Shown: positions 21,994 to 30,123 of the stretch, in pieces
Layout of the letters: each line of letters begins with the position of its first letter
Numbering within the stretch: position 1 is the first letter of the stretch
NCBI GenBank assembly: GCA_013330595.1
Contig: DUIB01000009.1
Span: forward strand, 74 to 64,073
Length of the DNA stretch: 64,000 nucleotides
Origin: Candidatus Woesearchaeota archaeon
GTDB taxonomy: Archaea; Nanobdellota; Nanobdellia; Woesearchaeales; UBA9642
Reading direction: 5' to 3'
Notes under the pieces: generated by a model
The model's input: the letters and a program-made list of their open reading frames with translations, nothing else
What the model was told of the DNA's origin: nothing
Databases searched by the model: none
Position numbers and translations under genes: made by a program

Positions 21994-23844
21994 TTATTCT
22001 CCCTTATACTTCTTCACTAATTCCATGATCCTTGATCCAGGGAATTTGCCTCTGTACTTCTTCATGGTTTCGCCCATTAAGGCTGCAGAATTCAGATTAG
22101 GATGTTTGGATATCAGGTTGACAATGAATGATATCAATTCTTCTTCATTTGTTTTGTATATAGAGAAATCAATTGTATTGCCTTTTGCATATTCGACCAT
22201 GATCTCTATTATTGCTTCTTTTGCTAGGTCTCCTGAATTTAATTTTGCTAATATATTATCAGCCAGCTCTCTGAATCTTTCCAATTCAACATCAATCTCA
22301 AGATTGAATCTTGTCTTTACTTCTTTTGGTGTTGAAACCAAAATCTCAGCAATCGTTACTGGTTTTACTTGAGGATATTTCTTTACAAATATTTCAAAAT
22401 CATTCTCAAAAACTAATTCCTTTGCAACCTGTGCAGGCAATGAGTATTTTTTTTCAAATCTCACCACTTTATCCTTAATCAATTCTGGCATCTCAATTTC
22501 ACTTAGATCAGGGATTATTGTCTTTACATCTGTCTCGGGATACATTCTTGAGCTTCCAGGCATTGGCCTTAAGAATGATGATGTTCCATCTTCTCGAGCA
22601 TTGCGCACTTCTTTTGACAATCCTTTATCATAGAATGATTTGATTGTTTCATCAATCTTATTAAATGCAAATTTGCATTTTTCTTCTGTCCCGATAATCA
22701 TTATCAACGAATCTGAATCATCAAGATTCAATGCGTCATAAATTTTCTTTACTTCATCAGCAATCTTATATTTATTCAGATCCTCATCTGTATGTATCAA
22801 TCCGTTTAATCCAAATGCTTTTATCCTGTCGCTCAATTCTGAGCCAAATCTTCTGGAAGGATTGACTTCAAATCCGAAAAACCCTTTGAAATCCTTATAG
22901 AATTTTCCATAAACTCTTGAATCAACATTCTTTTTTATCATAGAACTCTTAGTATCAGAAAAATATTCAGTTAAATCTATAATTTCATTTGATAAATCAA
23001 GTTTTTTTATTCTTGCTCTTATCTCATCACGTAATTTCAACATAGTTAATTGTCTTAACACTTCAAGCTCAACAACAGTATCAATCATCCTTAAATCCTG
23101 AACACCTTTAATTTCTGTTCTTGCACCTTCTGCAATTGATACATTAACATCTTGCCTGATTGTTCCGAGTCCTCTCTTGACTTTTCCAGTAGAACGAAGC
23201 ATCATTCCAATAAATCCTGCAATATCCTTAACTTGTTTAGCTGTTCTCATATCAGGACCCGTCGCAATCTCAATCAATGGAATTCCTAATCTATCAAGAC
23301 GATAAATATCATGATCCTGGTCTCTTGAAATAATCCTTGCTGCATCCTCTTCCAAACATAATGTATCAATCTTTATCCTGTTTAATTTTTCATCACTTTC
23401 AACTTCAATAAAACCATTTCTTGCAATCAATGCAGTCCTCTGAAATCCAGATGTATTAGAACCATCAACAACAGTCTTTCTCATGACATGCACTTGATTA
23501 ACTGTCTCTGCATTCATCATCTTTGATAATTGAAGAACAATCTTCAATGCTTCAGGATTGATATTGAATGGGGGGCATTCATCAAGCTCAACGTCGCAGA
23601 TAGTATCATTATAGTATTCATACACATAATGTTTCTGCTTAGACATCTCATATGCAGCAGCAATATCAACAGATCCTGTCTCACCAGCACTTGCTCTTAA
23701 TACTCTCTTGATAGTTTTGTCAGGAGCATCCTCCCTAATATCAGAAGGACAATTGCAGAACAACTTATTTGTATCAAGCTGCTGATGTATCTCCAATCCG
23801 GCTTTTAGGCCTAGTTTGGCATAATCCACATCTCTCATGAGCAT
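21994..23844 (-). CDS. gatE: glutamyl-tRNA(Gln) amidotransferase subunit E
   Basis: The protein is 616 aa. The N-terminus has 'GLEIHQQLDTNKLFCNCPS', a GatB/E-like catalytic domain and a C-terminal GatB/YqeY-like tail. Confidence 0.85.
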   Translation of the reverse strand: MLMRDVDYAKLGLKAGLEIHQQLDTNKLFCNCPSDIREDAPDKTIKRVLRASAGETGSVDIAAAYEMSKQKHYVYEYYNDTICDVELDECPPFNINPEALKIVLQLSKMMNAETVNQVHVMRKTVVDGSNTSGFQRTALIARNGFIEVESDEKLNRIKIDTLCLEEDAARIISRDQDHDIYRLDRLGIPLIEIATGPDMRTAKQVKDIAGFIGMMLRSTGKVKRGLGTIRQDVNVSIAEGARTEIKGVQDLRMIDTVVELEVLRQLTMLKLRDEIRARIKKLDLSNEIIDLTEYFSDTKSSMIKKNVDSRVYGKFYKDFKGFFGFEVNPSRRFGSELSDRIKAFGLNGLIHTDEDLNKYKIADEVKKIYDALNLDDSDSLIMIIGTEEKCKFAFNKIDETIKSFYDKGLSKEVRNAREDGTSSFLRPMPGSSRMYPETDVKTIIPDLSEIEMPELIKDKVVRFEKKYSLPAQVAKELVFENDFEIFVKKYPQVKPVTIAEILVSTPKEVKTRFNLEIDVELERFRELADNILAKLNSGDLAKEAIIEIMVEYAKGNTIDFSIYKTNEEELISFIVNLISKHPNLNSAALMGETMKKYRGKFPGSRIMELVKKYKGE

Positions 23845-23887
23845 GAAGAAAGGAATCCTGAATTTAAATGTTGCGGAAGAATAAAAA
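23797..23887. repeat. left copy of a ~90-bp direct repeat (gatE 5' coding end plus promoter)
   Basis: It is repeated at 30032-30123 with about 85% identity. Together the copies bracket the DGR/toxin-antitoxin/purF-like segment. Confidence 0.6.
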
Positions 23888-23910
23888 ATATCCCAGCATG
23901 TTTAGCTTGA

Positions 23911-24004
23911 CTATTCCAACGAGGCGATTATTGTTGTTGTCTAGATTGTTCCTAGCATTAGCATTTGAATTATTGTTGAGCCTGGAAACAAACCACAAGT
24001 GCCC
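23911..24004 (-). repeat. DGR template repeat (TR), sense on the minus strand
   Basis: This 94-nt copy is near-identical to 24403-24496. Thirteen of 14 differences are at TR adenines (AAY codons; the in-frame TR translation is ...LNNNSNANARNNLDNNNNRLV...). It is not part of a full-length gene. Confidence 0.75.
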
Positions 24005-24259
24005 CCAGAGTAGCTCTTTCACTGAAAGTATGCACTGCCACTTCATTTCTAACAGAAATCCACAGATTTCTGGAAGATCCCAAAAATGTTTCATTTTTGA
24101 TATCTGTCGTAGCTGTATTTTATAACAACATCCGCATGTTATCGTAGTGAAAGGGCATGTAGTCCAGCTACTCCATATCGCACGATTTTTCGGAAATCAT
24201 GCAAAGTGCTGGGATAATAAGAACGTTAAAGAAGAAATATAAAAAGTTAATGAAAAAAA

Positions 24260-25045
24260 TTACAATTTTACTGAAGGGTCAGCAGAAGGCACATACAACA
24301 ATCCATTGTATTGGAATGCCTTTCCACCAATCAACGCATCCTTGACCTTGTCATCCAATGCAAAAGATGCCTGATTTTTGCTCGCCGACTGCGCCTTCGG
24401 CGCTACCCCAACGAGGCGAACATTGTCGTCGTCTAGATTGCCCCTAGCAATAGCATCTGAATCATTGATGAGCCTGGAAGCAAACCACAAGCGCCCTACG
24501 GGCACGTCTGGAGTGTCACTAACATAGACTCCCATAATCTTGCTGTAGCCATGATCTGCTTTTGCTTTATCGAATGCTTTTCCTGCATATTCTTCAAGCA
24601 GTGCTTGATCTCTAGCTAATGCTTTCCATATTGGGTTTGATATTACTTCTTTTCGTGATAATGATTCTCCTTTTGCGTATTTGTTGAGTTCATCTCTTGT
24701 GAATTCTTGTCCTTCTAACGCCTTGTATTCGTCATCAGAAATGATTAATGCTCCATTCTTTAATTTACTTTGTGGGTTGATTCTTCGCATGATTCCTGAA
24801 TCAAGAACAACCTTAGCATTTCCATTTGTATTGTAGAACTTTGCGTCTCCTGTATCGAAATAATTTTCCCAGAAAGTTTTTATCAGATCTTGGTCTCCAG
24901 AATTTAATGTTTCTAGTCTCCGCTGCATCAATCCCTGCGTTGACATTGGTGTTCTGCCTTCAGCAATAAGTAAAGGCATCTGGTCAGTATTTCTTCCATA
25001 AAATTCCTTATAATCTTTGACTGTATCATTAAGTTGTAAAGCCAT
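24260..25045 (-). CDS. DGR variable (target) protein, 261 aa; possible C-type-lectin-like variable ligand-binding region (fold uncertain)
   Basis: It carries the variable repeat at codons ~184-214 ('GRLWFASRLINDSDAIARGNLDDDNVRLVGV'). The corresponding TR codons are Asn-rich. Confidence 0.7.
   Translation of the reverse strand: MALQLNDTVKDYKEFYGRNTDQMPLLIAEGRTPMSTQGLMQRRLETLNSGDQDLIKTFWENYFDTGDAKFYNTNGNAKVVLDSGIMRRINPQSKLKNGALIISDDEYKALEGQEFTRDELNKYAKGESLSRKEVISNPIWKALARDQALLEEYAGKAFDKAKADHGYSKIMGVYVSDTPDVPVGRLWFASRLINDSDAIARGNLDDDNVRLVGVAPKAQSASKNQASFALDDKVKDALIGGKAFQYNGLLYVPSADPSVKL
24385..24420 (-). promoter_or_regulatory. IMH-like GC-rich VR 3' end (CGCCTCGTTGGGGTAG) followed immediately by the GC hairpin GCGCC-GAA-GGCGC
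   Basis: The TR end reads CGCCTCGTTGGAATAG, an IMH* differing by 2 nt. The 5-bp GC stem with a 3-nt loop is extremely GC-rich for this genome. It matches the canonical DGR homing cis-element layout. Confidence 0.55.
24403..24496 (-). repeat. DGR variable repeat (VR) inside the target gene
   Basis: It aligns with the TR. Adenine-specific substitutions include N->D/I/G/V, H->R and I->V. Confidence 0.75.
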
Positions 25046-25232
25046 TTTAATTACCTCCTCTTAGGATATATTTTATAAGATATATTAGAACTTATTTATA
25101 AAGGTTTCGATTATTTTGCCACTCGATAGTGGTATCCATATATGATTAAATTGTTGGTGAAACATTTTAAAGCATGACGAAACTTCAAACAGCCATAAAA
25201 TTCAGTTAAAAACTATAAAAACAAGGATTACA

Positions 25233-26864
25233 ATGTACAAAACAATATACGACTACGAAAACCTTGAACGGGCATTCATTAATGCCAGAAAAAGAAAAAC
25301 CAAGAAAAAATATGTAATGGAATTCGAGGACAAGCTTAAGGAAAACCTTCTAAAACTACAGGAAGAATTGAAGTCACAAACCTACAAGCCAAAACCTCTA
25401 GAGATATTTATTCTAAGAGATCCTAAAACAAGAAAAATATCAAAATCAGACTTTAGGGATAGAGTAATTCATCATGCACTCTACAATATCATTGAGCCAA
25501 TATTTGATAAAACATTCATCCATGATTCTTACGCCAACAGATTAACAAAAGGAGCACTAAAAGCTATAGAAAGATTTGATCACTTTAAGAGAAAAGTCTC
25601 AAAGAATAATAAAAGAGACTGTCATTTTCTTAAAGCAGATATTAGGCACTATTTCGATAATGTTGACCACCAAATACTTCTGGACGTCTTAGAAAGAAAG
25701 ATAGAAGACAAAAAAAGTATGTGGCTTATCAAACAAATTCTTAATAACCACAAGGAAAAAGAAGCAGGAAAAGGAATGCCACTAGGAAATCTTACATCTC
25801 AATTCTTTGCTAATGTTTACTTAAATGAGTTGGATCAATATGTAAAACATATTTTGAAGGCAAAATATTATATCAGATATGTTGACGATTTCATTATACT
25901 GCATGATTCTATAGACGTGTTGAAAAATTACGAAGAGAAAATAAATATTTTTTTGAAAGAAGTGCTGAAATTAGAGCTTCATCCAGACAAATCAAAAATC
26001 ATTCGCCTAGACAAAGGAGCTAATTTCTTAGGATTCCGAATATTCTACAATCACAAACTCATAAGAAAAAAGAACTTGAATAAATTCGAGAAAAACTTCA
26101 ACCAACTAAAGCAAGATTATAAAGAAGGAATTATTGACAGAGAAAAAGTCATGGAAAAATTCGAAGGATGGATAGCATACATTAGTCATGCAAATACATA
26201 TAAATATAGAATACACCTGACTAAAGAATTAAACAAAAATTTTCCAATAAAAAAACTAATAAGAATTGTCTATATAAAAAAACATGAAAATCATTTAAAG
26301 AGAACTGAATTGAGTGAGTTTCAGTATAGTCCACAAAAAACCTTGCAATTATTCGAACAAAAATTAAGCATAAAGCAAATTGCTGAACAACGTGGAATAA
26401 AAGAATCTACTGTATGGGGGCATTTCGCTAAACTAATAGAATATAACCAATGCACGGTGTGGGATATATTGCCTAGAGAAAAGGTAATTCTAATTCTTAC
26501 ACGTATTAATAACGAGCTGGACTTATTGAAGAGTATAAAACTAAGATTAAAAGATGAAAGCATAACTTATCCAGAAATAAATTGTGTTCTCGCAAGTGTA
26601 AAAGCAAAAAACAAGAAGAAAAACATTCTCTATCACTTCAAATGGTACAAGAGAAGTCACTGCTACAGAAAATGCTACGAAAATCTAGAACAAAGAAAAA
26701 TTTGCGAAATGAAATTCAAACACTTCATTGCAGAAAATCCTACATGGCAACTAACAAAAAGAGAATTCCTAATTGTCTTCAATAATCAAATGAATATATG
26801 CATTCTTCCTGATAAAGAAAAAAGAAGATACATGGGCTATAAAGAATTCAAGGAAAAGAAATAA
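25233..26864 (+). CDS. DGR-type reverse transcriptase with a ~200-aa C-terminal extension containing a predicted HTH
   Basis: It has RT motifs 1-7 ('RDRVIHHALYNII', 'FLKADIRHYFDNVDH', 'YIRYVDDFIILH'). 'LGNLTSQ' matches the DGR-RT signature [I/L]GxxxSQ, which replaces QGxxxSP of group II intron RTs. The C-terminal 'SIKQIAEQRGIKESTVWGHFAKLIE' is HTH-like. Confidence 0.85.
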   Translation: MYKTIYDYENLERAFINARKRKTKKKYVMEFEDKLKENLLKLQEELKSQTYKPKPLEIFILRDPKTRKISKSDFRDRVIHHALYNIIEPIFDKTFIHDSYANRLTKGALKAIERFDHFKRKVSKNNKRDCHFLKADIRHYFDNVDHQILLDVLERKIEDKKSMWLIKQILNNHKEKEAGKGMPLGNLTSQFFANVYLNELDQYVKHILKAKYYIRYVDDFIILHDSIDVLKNYEEKINIFLKEVLKLELHPDKSKIIRLDKGANFLGFRIFYNHKLIRKKNLNKFEKNFNQLKQDYKEGIIDREKVMEKFEGWIAYISHANTYKYRIHLTKELNKNFPIKKLIRIVYIKKHENHLKRTELSEFQYSPQKTLQLFEQKLSIKQIAEQRGIKESTVWGHFAKLIEYNQCTVWDILPREKVILILTRINNELDLLKSIKLRLKDESITYPEINCVLASVKAKNKKKNILYHFKWYKRSHCYRKCYENLEQRKICEMKFKHFIAENPTWQLTKREFLIVFNNQMNICILPDKEKRRYMGYKEFKEKK

Positions 26865-26982
26865 TCTTCGCTTTTATCTATAATTCTTCCGGAAAATTCT
26901 GCAAACTGCATTAAAAAAACCAAAACCTTTATATAGTAATTCATTATATTTCATTATGTTTTGTTATAAAAGGTGATGTTTT

Positions 26983-27228
26983 ATGGTTCAGGCAATGGTC
27001 GATATCGGAGAACATGAGGATAGGATCTTGACAATAGTCAAGGGCAAATTCGGTTTTAAGAATAAATCTGATGCAGTGAATTTTGTCATATCAAGATTTG
27101 AGGCTGAACTCTTAGAGCCAGAATTAAGACCTGAATTTGTCCAAAAAATCCAAAAATTAGATAAAAACAAAAAGTTCACAAGTTATAAAACTCTCTCTGA
27201 CTTAAGAAAAGAGATTGAACATGCATAA
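26983..27228 (+). CDS. putative antitoxin (small archaeal DUF2683-like protein) paired with the RelE-like toxin
   Basis: It is 81 aa and overlaps the downstream RelE-like gene by 14 nt. Confidence 0.4.
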   Translation: MVQAMVDIGEHEDRILTIVKGKFGFKNKSDAVNFVISRFEAELLEPELRPEFVQKIQKLDKNKKFTSYKTLSDLRKEIEHA

Positions 27229-27499
27229 ATTCTCGATTGAAGAAGGCTTGAGGAAAACCTTAAATAAATTATTCAAAAAAGATCGGGTTACTTATGAAAT
27301 TTTAATGAAAAAAATTGAAGAGATATTGTCAAATAATGATATCAGTCATTACAAGAATTTAAGAAGTCCTCTTCAAGATTTCAAAAGAGTCCATGTAAGA
27401 GGACCGTTTATCTTGACTTTCAAATATGTTGAATCAGAAGATAAAATAATATTCTATGATTTTGATCATCATGATTATATTTATAGAAAAGATAAATAA
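27215..27499 (+). CDS. RelE/ParE-family toxin
   Basis: The C-terminal 'KRVHVRGPFILTFKYVESEDKIIFYDFDHHDYIY' matches the RelE/ParE fold consensus. Confidence 0.6.
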   Translation: MNMHKFSIEEGLRKTLNKLFKKDRVTYEILMKKIEEILSNNDISHYKNLRSPLQDFKRVHVRGPFILTFKYVESEDKIIFYDFDHHDYIYRKDK

Positions 27500-27589
27500 T
27501 TTTCACTCTCATCCGTAATTCTTCCGAAAAATTCTGAGTAATGCATATAAAGAATCGCGTATTATCCTATTCAAAGAAAACCTTTATAA

Positions 27590-27636: not shown

Positions 27637-27894
27637 ATGGCAAGCATCGATATAACAAGCATGAGCTCAAGAGGGCAGATAGTTATACCATTAAATCTGA
27701 GAGAGATGATGGGATTGAAGGAAGGCGAAAAATTTGCAGTCACAGGCAAAGAAGATACTATCATATTGAAGAAAATCCAGATGCCTTCTTTTGATAATTT
27801 CGATAAATTAATGCAGCAAACACAAGAATTTGCTAAGAAGAAAGAAATAAAACAAAAAGATCTTGATAGCGCTGTGCATAGGGCAAGAAAATGA
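27637..27894 (+). CDS. AbrB/MazE (SpoVT-AbrB swapped-hairpin) antitoxin
   Basis: It has the 'SSRGQIVIPLNLREMMGLKEGEKFAVTGKEDTIIL' motif. Its stop overlaps the ATG of the PIN gene (ATGA). Confidence 0.6.
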   Translation: MASIDITSMSSRGQIVIPLNLREMMGLKEGEKFAVTGKEDTIILKKIQMPSFDNFDKLMQQTQEFAKKKEIKQKDLDSAVHRARK

Positions 27895-28385
27895 ATGTTG
27901 TCTTAGATACAAATATTTTTATAAAAAAAATCCAGAAAATTTATTTCTAATGTATATATTACTGGATTTTTTGTATCCTAAAAATTCATTTCTATTGAAT
28001 TTTTATGATCTCGGGAATATTTTGGAAAGGAGATCCTTATAGGATACTCTTGTTATGGAAAGAAAACAGAATACAACTAATAAATTCAATAGAAATAATT
28101 GCTGAAATATCAAGAACATTATCTGATTTTAAAATTCAATTGTCAGAAGAATTGAAGAAAGGATGGATAACTTTAATTAAAAATAATAGTATTATTGTTG
28201 AGCCTAAAGAAAAAATCGCGATAATAAAAGATGATCCTACAGATAACAAATTTATTGAAGCAGCAATTGAAGGAAAAGCCGATTTTATAATAACAAACGA
28301 TAAACACCTCCTAAAAATCAAACAATTTAGAAATGTAAAGATAATTACGCCAAAAGAGTTCTTAAACACATACTTAACATTATGA
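27891..28385 (+). pseudogene. PIN-domain toxin (TIGR00305-like) split by a ~85-nt hairpin-containing insertion or frameshift
   Basis: The ATG at 27891 encodes 'MNVVLDTNIFIKK', the canonical PIN N-terminus, followed by stops at 27948 and 27996. The rest of the PIN domain ('ISGIFW...DPTDNKFIEAAIEGKADFIITNDKHLL') resumes at 28005. Confidence 0.5.
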
Positions 28386-30031: not shown

Positions 30032-30123
30032 CCATAATCTTTAATCTTAGTTTAGAGTAATCTAAATCTCCCATGAGCATAAAGAAAAGAATCCTTAATT
30101 TAAATGTTGCGGAACGAATAAAT
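30032..30123. repeat. right copy of the ~90-bp gatE 5'/promoter direct repeat
   Basis: Its reverse complement encodes MLMGDLDYSKLRLK (gatE: MLMRDVDYAKLGLK), preceded by the same TTTAAAT promoter block. Confidence 0.6.

Follow-up and report, generated by a model that had tools for sequence, protein, structure and literature searches.

The locus at positions 23911-26864 of the window, i.e., the whole 64-kb stretch of DNA analyzed herein, is in all probability a complete chromosomal diversity-generating retroelement (DGR) of the archaeal AvpA type, residing in a Woesearchaeota-like DPANN genome. The type has already been published and is not a new kind, and DGRs are the commonest type of reverse transcriptase (RT) in DPANN archaea (PMC8632793). 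The anatomy and family relationships of the locus could be established directly, and the in silico analyses identified a DGR-clade RT, adenine-specific template and variable repeats (TR and VR), an IMH with a GC hairpin 3' of the VR, and a target protein having a C-type-lectin fold. As a DGR, the locus is a clean yet unsurprising example, whose AvpA-type target, internal VR and hairpin were published in 2015-2016; the useful part is the explanation of its layout, in which the template appears to be packaged as an independent small RNA gene including the uncharacterized Rfam motif RT-16.

The repeats and the elements at their 3' ends were located as follows.

23911-24004, minus strand: template repeat (TR), 94 nt, with 11 AAY codons and IMH* GGAATAG at 23917->23911.
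24403-24496, minus strand: variable repeat (VR), inside the target gene, encoding residues 184-214.
24391-24409, minus strand: IMH GGGGTAG (24409->24403) followed by the GC hairpin GCGCC-GAA-GGCGC (24403->24391, trinucleotide loop), within the coding sequence.

Among the direct repeats of the region, this pair was ranked first by a repeat finder (94 nt, 85% identity, ungapped). The earlier note had claimed a DGR-type RT together with an adenine-specific TR/VR pair at these positions, with 14 differences, 13 of them on the 31 adenines of the TR, about 63 non-A positions, AAY-rich TR codons and quoted translations of both repeats; its description of the repeats was borne out in full by alignment, base tabulation, codon counting and re-translation. 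Read on the minus strand, which encodes ORF 24260-25045, the TR is composed of 31 A, 25 T, 19 G and 19 C, and the changes from TR to VR were ten A>G, three A>T and one T>C; 13 of the 31 adenines are thus mismatched, as opposed to 1 of the 63 other positions (one-sided Fisher p = 7.6e-7). Elsewhere in the 64 kb no TR-like copy was found, the closest other stretch agreeing at 30 of the 63 non-A positions. The final two A>G differences, by which GGAATAG of the TR becomes GGGGTAG of the VR, recurred in nearly every related locus and thus represent a fixed IMH*/IMH marker, not random mutagenesis; after setting them aside, the mutagenic TR/VR differences number eleven. The lone non-A difference (24480, GTT>GCT, V189A) was private to this genome, and the TR-encoded Val was retained at residue 189 in three other near-identical alleles. 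With respect to coding capacity, the TR has 28 adenines outside GGAATAG, holds 15 variable codons and affords approximately 1.2e15 protein variants, with no stop codon reachable.

The same polarity of end signals was observed in most of 34 related loci, in which GGGGTAG and GCGCC-GGA/GAA-GGCGC were present 3' of the VR while the TR side carried GGAATAG and no hairpin. The folding energy of the GC hairpin by itself was unexceptional (z = -0.4). These IMH and hairpin features are the same as those described for the Nanoarchaeota DGRs (PMC4372165; PMC5006420).

The RT gene and its domains were assigned as follows.

25233-26864, plus strand: DGR reverse transcriptase gene, 543 aa.
25425-26042, plus strand: RVT_1 domain.
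25782-25802, plus strand: motif-4 LGNLTSQ, residues 184-190.
25878-25889, plus strand: catalytic YVDD.
26334-26591, plus strand: HTH_40 domain, RecQ-C-terminal-like.
26661-26801, plus strand: 4-Cys module with conserved Cys477/481/491/523.

The LGNLTSQ sequence, previously pointed out as the DGR-RT hallmark, was indeed present, and both this motif and YVDD were invariant in 22 homologues. The best solved relative of the RT, by 20 orders of magnitude, was bRT of Bordetella phage (8ub7, E = 4.5e-43); group II RTs reached no better than 7e-23, and retron RTs 1e-4. Relatives of this RT are annotated as "retron-type RT" in several sources.

Such labels, and the finding that the best named NCBIfam match was the group II RT model TIGR04416, could be taken to mean that the repeat arose by ordinary partial duplication of a gene, or that the RT is of the group II intron, retron or defence kind, the adenine bias being a coincidence. 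The TIGR04416 match, however, reached 166.8 bits against a cutoff of 300, every other named NCBIfam model likewise stayed under its own cutoff, and no group II intron or retron RNA family of Rfam matched in the window, where the RT-16 RNA described below was the sole Rfam match in the 64 kb. Moreover, the adenine bias (p = 8e-7 when rounded) was repeated in 51 independent loci. Considering these observations along with the decisive preference for bRT, this explanation is effectively refuted, and the locus is treated as a DGR hereafter.

The claim that no avd is recognizable also held, as no match to Avd (PF05635) was obtained among 14 ORFs of the window or among 42 small ORFs beside the RT in related loci. 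The latter mostly encoded toxin-antitoxin parts, HEPN domains, zinc ribbons and integrases, none of which occupied a recurring fixed position. An accessory protein (Avd, or HRDC, MSL or CH1), which is counted among the features of DGRs, was thus not found; such genes are missing from 29% of DGRs (PMC5758913).

The protein that would be diversified is encoded immediately around the VR.

24260-25045, minus strand: target (variable protein) gene, AvpA-like C-type-lectin fold, 261 aa, with 47 residues after the VR-encoded residues 184-214.

The target fits the AvpA subclass of the CLec fold, in which the VR supplies the binding face and the C-terminal tail is disordered, and the IMH of its VR encodes an RLVGV strand. 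The identity between AvpA and the target in the structural alignment was 18%, and searches against the PDB by phmmer and with a 44-sequence profile yielded no AvpA homology, with nothing at E = 0.01 or better. The link between the two proteins is one of fold only, and since the target is undetectable from AvpA by sequence or profile, it constitutes a separate sequence family.

A second natural VR allele was directly observed in the protein P0125, which is 97% identical to the target of the window and differs from it at eight VR residues and only one residue outside the VR. Seven of the eight differences lie on TR adenine codons, the eighth (V189) matches the TR, and all are reachable by A>N. 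P0125 was the only alternative allele found and is known as a protein sequence only; an exact look-up gave no DNA on record encoding it, and two metagenome scans, one using the target protein and the other an exact 34-nt pattern immediately 3' of the VR, found nothing. The two alleles agree at the IMH-proximal residues 206-209 and differ in the distal part, a pattern that one recent round of homing starting at the IMH would not produce. The exact VR allele of the window, on the other hand, was present in twenty contigs and four MAG records, indicating either that diversification is not rampant or that one population was sampled repeatedly.

This uniformity of the VR, as well as the one non-adenine change accumulated in it, would also suit a fossil DGR that was once active and is now frozen, its TR/VR differences being historical. 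We regard such a state as quite unlikely, because the RT ORF is uninterrupted and retains every catalytic motif, the putative promoter, RT-16, IMH/IMH*, the hairpin and the terminal helix (a perfect 10 bp) are all intact as well, and P0125 provides a second allele on a near-identical background with a single difference outside the VR.

Since the alignment of 44 target sequences was too variable, related loci were collected via the RT alignment. A clearly classifiable A-biased TR/VR pair was found in 51 of the 80 loci; the TR was antisense to the RT in 16 of these 51, and the exact divergent arrangement of the window was common to 5. The RT had been placed on the strand opposite to the target, which is correct, the RT lying on the plus strand and the target and TR on the minus strand, but the layout is not unusual as had been claimed, because it recurs in the clade at the above frequencies. 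That the TR and RT of DGRs can lie on different strands was already noted by Wu et al. (2018; PMC5758913). The RT can probably face either way because the template is an independent small RNA gene, the predicted elements of which are listed below.

23883-24215, minus strand: whole predicted template RNA of ~335 nt, comprising the RT-16 domain, TR, linker, closing strand and U-tail, as a synthesis of the element evidence.
24238-24245, minus strand: putative TATA box TTTTTATA of the template RNA gene, 15 nt after the target stop codon, with a predicted start near 24215.
24207-24216, minus strand: 5' strand UAUCCCAGCA of the terminal helix, a perfect 10-bp complement of 23898->23889.
24005-24212, minus strand: structured 5' domain, Rfam RF03019 (RT-16 RNA), adjoining the TR.
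23889-23898, minus strand: 3' strand UGCUGGGAUA of the terminal helix, 12 nt after the TR.
23883-23888, minus strand: oligo-T run, likely archaeal terminator, directly after the terminal helix and 39 nt before the gatE ATG (23844).

The earlier note had regarded the TR as an element in the gatE promoter region; these features instead place it in a predicted promoter-to-terminator RNA gene of its own including RT-16, and their conservation and covariation were evident across related loci. The TTTTTATA sequence was found at a fixed distance of 29-31 nt before the GUCC... 5' end of the RNA in 26 of 28 related loci, suggesting that it serves as the promoter of the template RNA. The RT-16 match extended over the full model (positions 1-158) and scored 63.4 bits versus a gathering score of 50 (E = 1e-8), and among 43 related loci that were scanned, covering every layout and all three RT length classes, this domain lay immediately 5' of the TR and on its strand in 40. 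A T-run followed the GCUGGGAC motif in most loci, with no conservation of sequence beyond it, and thus probably terminates transcription of the template RNA. An ORF at 23864-24094 (76 aa) was rejected as a gene; it had no family match and runs across the TR and the 3' tail of the predicted RNA as well as a portion of the RT-16 domain.

The terminal helix was formed in both the RNAfold MFE and centroid structures. Across 27 loci, 86.9% of cells paired, as against 24-46% when the partners were slid, and seven of the ten pairs changed on both sides. Double-change cells numbered 27 versus 9.8 +/- 2.2 in shuffles (0/500 reached the observed value), and the mean duplex energy was -16.9 kcal/mol for cognate and -13.3 kcal/mol for non-cognate strands (0/2000 permutations). 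As the 5' strand of this helix also pairs in stem P1 of the Rfam RT-16 model, the two pairings are mutually exclusive, a point that weighs against the scheme proposed below.

In related loci, the target gene, VR and TR were co-oriented with the TR 230-550 nt downstream, except in two loci (L039 and L048), and the stop codon of the window target is only 15 nt from the TATA-like box. Such proximity would be compatible with read-through, in which the target mRNA is prolonged at its 3' end to include the TR, which would then have no promoter of its own. This seems unlikely, given the fixed spacing of TTTTTATA before the conserved GUCC 5' strand, the terminal helix that joins exactly the predicted 5' end to the 3' tail, and the two exceptional loci, in which the TR lies away from the VRs and the VRs are on the opposite strand.

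A role for the HTH_40 domain as an RT-16-binding or Avd-replacing part was weakened because extension-free RTs of ~340-380 aa have the same RT-16 RNA; any function of the extra C-terminal RT domains, like the RNA ends, RT-RNA binding, priming and homing, is what we infer in the following scheme. A gene for a small non-coding RNA, beginning 45 nt past the target stop codon on the minus strand, would be transcribed from its own TATA box to yield an RNA of ~335 nt, consisting in order of the structured RT-16 domain, the 94-nt TR, a short tail pairing with the extreme 5' end, and the oligo-U terminator. The RT from the divergent gene would bind this RNA in trans and copy the TR into cDNA with misincorporation opposite adenines, and the cDNA would then replace the VR in the target gene. 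The direction of homing would be set by the contrast between the two repeat ends, the VR carrying GGGGTAG and the GC hairpin and the TR carrying GGAATAG but no hairpin. As many as 15 residues of the ligand-binding face, 11 of them with AAY codons, could thereby be recoded in the C-type-lectin-fold protein, giving ~1e15 variants without a stop.

There is perhaps an even chance that the entire RT-16-associated archaeal clade, of which this locus is a member and which presumably corresponds to Roux clade 5, represents a mechanistically distinct, Avd-free DGR subclass, having a free-standing RNA gene of ~335 nt with its own promoter and terminator, a structured domain 5' of the TR (permuted relative to the Bordetella Sp RNA), and ends closed by a covarying helix that competes with RT-16 P1 as a possible conformational switch, the RNA serving in trans RTs encoded on either strand, whether or not they carry HTH_40/Cys4. 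If so, a function would be assigned to the orphan Rfam motif RT-16, and a solution to priming and stopping unlike that of the bRT-Avd-Sp ribonucleoprotein would come to light. A compact two-part system of this kind (the RT plus one ~335-nt RNA, no Avd) could be reconstituted, which would permit tests of the priming and stopping of cDNA synthesis in Avd-less DGRs, and the RT-RNA pair might be engineered for targeted mutagenesis.

Among known systems, the Nanoarchaeota (DUSEL4) AvpA DGRs (Paul et al., 2015, PMC4372165; Handa et al., 2016, PMC5006420; PDB 5IOO) share with the window the internal VR followed by a flexible tail of ~46 residues, a GC hairpin with a trinucleotide loop within the coding sequence (PMC4372165, PMC5006420), an IMH encoding an R-[FL]-x-G-V strand (PMC5006420), the lack of a clear Avd, and an ultra-small DPANN archaeal host (PMC4372165, PMC5006420). 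Unlike in those systems, the target of the window is only 18% identical to AvpA and forms a separate sequence family, and the RT gene diverges from the unit made up of target and template. The accessible text of PMC4372165 and PMC5006420 contained no mention of the RT-16 domain, the promoter/terminator unit or the terminal helix, some of which may be described in the DPANN DGR survey of Paul et al. (2017, Nat Microbiol).

The DGR of Bordetella phage BPP-1 (mtd-avd-TR-brt; 8UB7; bioRxiv 10.1101/2023.10.23.563531) resembles the present one in its homologous RT core with aligned catalytic and SQ-motif residues, adenine-specific TR/VR, IMH versus IMH*, GC hairpin after the VR, C-type-lectin-fold target, and long-range duplex between sequences upstream and downstream of the TR. 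In contrast, BPP-1 requires an Avd pentamer, and no Avd was found at the window locus. Its structured RNA (Sp, Rfam RT-10) is situated 3' of the TR and shares a transcript with brt, whereas that of the window (RT-16) lies 5' of the TR, after which only ~25 nt follow, in a putative separate gene that can be antisense to the RT. The window RT also has a C-terminal extension of ~210 residues that bRT does not.

RT-16 itself appears in the available text of Weinberg et al. (2017; PMC5737381) only as a motif "found near RT genes" with no role assigned, RT-10 alone being tied to a DGR. The RT-16 of the window matched the whole of RF03019 above the gathering score, and the Rfam model does not include the longer terminal helix that competes with the first stem.

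Regarding architecture, no motif was reported by Wu et al. (PMC5758913) for RT C-terminal extensions, and no mention of HTH_40 combined with a reverse transcriptase was found in the literature searched. With the DGRs classified in that study (Wu et al., 2018; PMC5758913), the window shares the lack of an accessory gene (the accessory-less Architecture A) and the placement of TR and RT on different strands, both of which were noted there as existing variants. Compared with the HRDC-containing Architecture C (PMC5758913), the nucleic-acid-binding domain of the window is fused to the RT and not separately encoded, and it is HTH_40, not HRDC; since HTH_40 resembles a RecQ C-terminal domain, it occupies the same helicase niche as HRDC.

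The earlier note had called this locus a complete diversity-generating retroelement (DGR), and this call was right: a DGR-type reverse transcriptase (RT), an adenine-biased pair of template repeat (TR) and variable repeat (VR), a contrast between the VR-end and TR-end markers (IMH and IMH*), and a target resembling AvpA, the variable protein of Nanoarchaeota DGRs, were all found.

Features of the DGR locus
25233-26864, plus strand: RT gene, 543 aa, with RVT_1 (Pfam) at residues 65-270 and HTH_40 (Pfam) at residues 368-453
24260-25045, minus strand: target (variable-protein) gene, 261 aa
24403-24496, minus strand: VR
24245-24238, minus strand: predicted TATA box TTTTTATA, 15 nt after the target stop codon
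24005-24212, minus strand: RT-16 RNA (Rfam RF03019)
23911-24004, minus strand: TR
24216-24207 with 23898-23889, minus strand: terminal helix of the predicted template RNA, perfect over 10 bp in the window
27637-27894 and 28005-28385: MazE/AbrB-type antitoxin and PIN-domain toxin, adjoining the DGR

The TR and VR constituted the top-ranked direct repeat of the region in the repeat finder (94 nt, 85% identity, gap-free), and their similarity ended a few bases beyond the repeat on both sides. Both copies were read in the coding direction of the target gene (minus strand), in which the TR comprises 31 A, 25 T, 19 G, and 19 C. Tabulated per base, the 14 differences (10 A>G, 3 A>T, and 1 T>C) included 13 on TR adenines, as the earlier note had counted, so that 13/31 adenines were substituted versus 1/63 other bases (Fisher p = 7.6e-7); its codon readings of both repeats were also correct on re-translation. 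When adenines were disregarded, no second TR-like sequence was found in the 64-kb window. The VR ends with GGGGTAG directly followed by a hairpin, GCGCC-GAA-GGCGC (24403-24391), whereas the TR ends with GGAATAG without a hairpin, and this contrast was kept in nearly all of 34 related loci. Two of the 13 adenine substitutions thus represent the fixed IMH/IMH* distinction, and the remaining 11 are mutagenic. Since the folding energy of the hairpin taken alone was unremarkable, its support comes from conservation.

The target protein was identical to HIH31899.1, HIH54350.1, HIJ02176.1, and HIJ13191.1 (Candidatus Woesearchaeota) and was present on 20 contigs. A near-identical allele from SRR3989339 (P0125), belonging to the same 90% cluster, differed from it at one position beyond the VR, and its VR residues (LSGYSYAGAWGSLDDDNVRL; window, LINDSDAIARGNLDDDNVRL; TR-encoded, LNNNSNANARNNLDNNNNRL) were all reachable from the TR codons by adenine changes alone. 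The TR-encoded Val189 was kept in three alleles, indicating that the sole non-adenine mismatch of the window is a private point mutation. P0125 differed from the window at residues 193-203, and the IMH-adjacent D206, D207, N208, and V209 were common to both. This pattern is the opposite of that for partial homing from the IMH; allele recombination or selection on residues 206-209 is possible. The window has one target only; in nine related loci, a single TR corresponded to two or three VRs, located in paralogous targets that were arrayed in tandem or close by.

Among solved structures, the best match to the RT was by far 8ub7, the Bordetella phage bRT (E = 4.5e-43), versus 7e-23 or weaker for group II intron RTs and approximately 1e-4 for retron RTs, in good agreement with the DGR-type assignment that the earlier note had based on LGNLTSQ. 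All NCBIfam named RT models (group II, Drt2/3/5, and AbiA) scored under their cutoffs. The bRT residues I181, G182, Q187, D215, and D216, numbered identically in our alignment and in the paper on the bRT-Avd-RNA structure that names them (bioRxiv 10.1101/2023.10.23.563531), aligned with L184, G185, Q190, D218, and D219 of the window RT, and thus LGNLTSQ corresponds to the DGR SQ motif and YVDD to the catalytic site. The family search gave 7554 matches, the best 120 of which all carried RVT_1 and HTH_40, and 589 relatives were found in the species-representative genome set. Relatives fell into three length classes: RTs of about 340-380 aa, those of about 460-500 aa with HTH_40 only, and those of about 530-550 aa with both HTH_40 and a Cys module. 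In the window RT, residues 338-543 were confidently predicted as an all-helical unit (pLDDT 86), and Cys477, 481, 491, and 523 were invariant in the homologue alignment. Because RT-16 was present with all three classes, the C-terminal extension cannot be what makes RT-16 usable; that it substitutes for the DGR accessory protein Avd is speculation. The annotated N-terminal extension of one RT homologue, P0129 (…GDNNNGLNGNNNLNNNGRVLGIV…), proved to be translated TR, its gene start having been called too far upstream.

The 261-aa target product had no match in Pfam, NCBIfam, or PDB sequences, nor did a 44-sequence target profile in the PDB. At least 181 homologues, all unnamed, were found, their sources being MAGs of Nanoarchaeota, Woesearchaeota, and Pacearchaeota. 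When these were aligned, the VR stretch proved conserved at its scaffold residues (W187, L192, S196, A198, L204, G209-R210, and G213) and hypervariable at the positions encoded by AAY codons in the TR. The earlier note had proposed predicting the target structure, and the AlphaFold model built from this alignment was confident (mean pLDDT 88.6).

What the earlier note missed is that the TR belongs to a predicted stand-alone RNA gene, which includes RT-16. RT-16, the sole Rfam match in the window, covered the full model (63.4 bits; gathering score, 50) and stopped one base before the TR. In three scans of related loci covering every layout, it was immediately next to the 5' end of the TR and on the same strand in 14/15, 13/13, and 13/15 loci. 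Upstream, TTTTTATA lay 29-31 nt before a conserved GUCC(C/U)(A/G)G(C) in 26/28 loci, the spacing expected between an archaeal TATA box and the start site. On the 3' side of the TR, the related loci had a linker of 8-20 nt, then GCUGGGAC(A), and then a T-run as predicted terminator, past which the sequence was whatever neighbours the element. The GCUGGGAC motif is complementary to the predicted 5' end of the RNA, which would give the terminal helix. Across 27 loci aligned with MAFFT, 86.9% of cells paired versus 24-46% with slid partners, 7/10 pairs changed on both sides, e.g., C-G to U-A (9 loci) and A-U to G-C (5 loci), and 0/500 shuffles matched the observed covariation. Cognate ends paired at -16.9 versus -13.3 kcal/mol for non-cognate ends (0/2000 permutations as good), and the helix appeared in the MFE as well as the centroid structure when 24215-23881 was folded with RNAfold (z = -2.9). 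The base of Rfam stem P1 uses the same 5' nucleotides (24207-24212 with 24164-24169), and this pairing was weaker and also cognate-specific. The two pairings are therefore mutually exclusive alternatives, whose alternation may act as an RNA conformational switch. Rather than an element of the gatE promoter region, as the earlier note had it, the TR thus lies within a predicted RNA gene with its own promoter, RT-16, terminal helix, and T-run.

We fetched 80 related loci, and a script found clear adenine-biased TR/VR pairs in 51.

Layouts of the 51 related loci
Target-TR-RT on one strand, TR 40-150 nt before RT: 32/51
RT, then antisense TR and target: 11/51
Divergent order, as in the window: 5/51
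TR before RT, VRs on the other strand: 2/51
RT, target, TR: 1/51

The layout, described as unusual in the earlier note, is accordingly a recurrent variant, the same divergent order occurring in 5/51 loci and a TR antisense to the RT in 16/51; TR and RT may lie on different strands (Wu et al., 2018; PMC5758913). In all but two loci, in which TR and VRs were on opposite strands, target and TR had the same orientation and the TR followed the VR at a distance of 230-550 nt, a gap occupied in the window by the tail of the target, the predicted promoter, and RT-16. The strand arrangement is thus explained rather than anomalous. Consistent with the note's failure to recognise an avd gene, no Avd family match was found among the window ORFs or 42 small ORFs adjoining the RT in related loci; 29% of DGRs are without an accessory gene (Wu et al., 2018; PMC5758913).

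In the neighbourhood, the gatE start codon with about 11 codons and 41 nt upstream was duplicated at 23812-23885 and 30048-30122 (both minus; 65/75 identical). The second copy, 6.2 kb away, is a dead fragment (…MLMGDLDYSKLRLK…). Between the two copies lie the template RNA, target, RT, two toxin-antitoxin pairs, and a purF-like gene, and the duplication may have been left by an insertion or recombination event that placed this block ahead of gatE. A 66-nt direct repeat (26854-26919 and 27489-27554, 76% identical), whose copies start in the final codons of the RT and of the 94-aa ORF, brackets a DUF2683 ORF (26983-27228) and a RelE/ParE-like ORF (27215-27499), an arrangement suggestive of the insertion or duplication of a toxin-antitoxin cassette immediately downstream of the RT. 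Related DGR loci likewise lay amid ParE, HEPN, PIN, HicB, and integrase genes, suggesting a tendency of the cassettes to occupy variable, island-like regions. MAG records labelled Cloacimonadota, Paceibacterota, "bacterium", or "Methanosarcinales" (related loci L052, L053, L055, L005, L009-L011, and others) carried the archaeal RT, RT-16, and AvpA-like cassette, and mistakes in binning or classification, not true hosts, probably account for these labels. Two short metagenome contigs, L001 (2546-2819) and L002 (2496-2975), were 99.9% identical to the window over the DGR and diverged abruptly inside gatE, L002 continuing into a different gatE-like sequence, which could reflect a chimeric assembly or recombination between strains.

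The target is an AvpA-like variable protein. As in AvpA, where Handa et al. (2016; PMC5006420) describe these traits, its VR is internal, about 46 poorly ordered residues lie beyond the VR, the post-VR hairpin is within the coding sequence, and the IMH encodes an R-[FL]-x-G-V strand (RLVGV in the window). The hairpin also shares the trinucleotide loop that Paul et al. (2015; PMC4372165) show for Nanoarchaeota DGRs. The locus adds one more member to the AvpA-type DGRs of archaea, which have been known since 2015-2017, and DGRs are the dominant RT type in the host group, DPANN archaea (PMC8632793), so its novelty of kind is low. What seems worth pursuing, clade-wide rather than at this locus, is an Avd-less two-component system with the template RNA as an independent gene. 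RT-16, a hitherto function-less motif, lies within this predicted gene; some of these features may already have been covered by Paul et al. (2017). Where Weinberg et al. (2017; PMC5737381) treat RT-1 to RT-19, they describe them only as motifs near RT genes, tying RT-10 (the Bordetella spacer) alone to a DGR and speculating that others might be DGR parts. In Bordetella, the primer is supplied by a structured RNA that lies 3' of the TR and also duplexes with a segment just upstream of the TR (bioRxiv 10.1101/2023.10.23.563531), whereas in the window the RNA structure is nearly all on the 5' side of the TR, past which the RNA continues for only about 25 nt.
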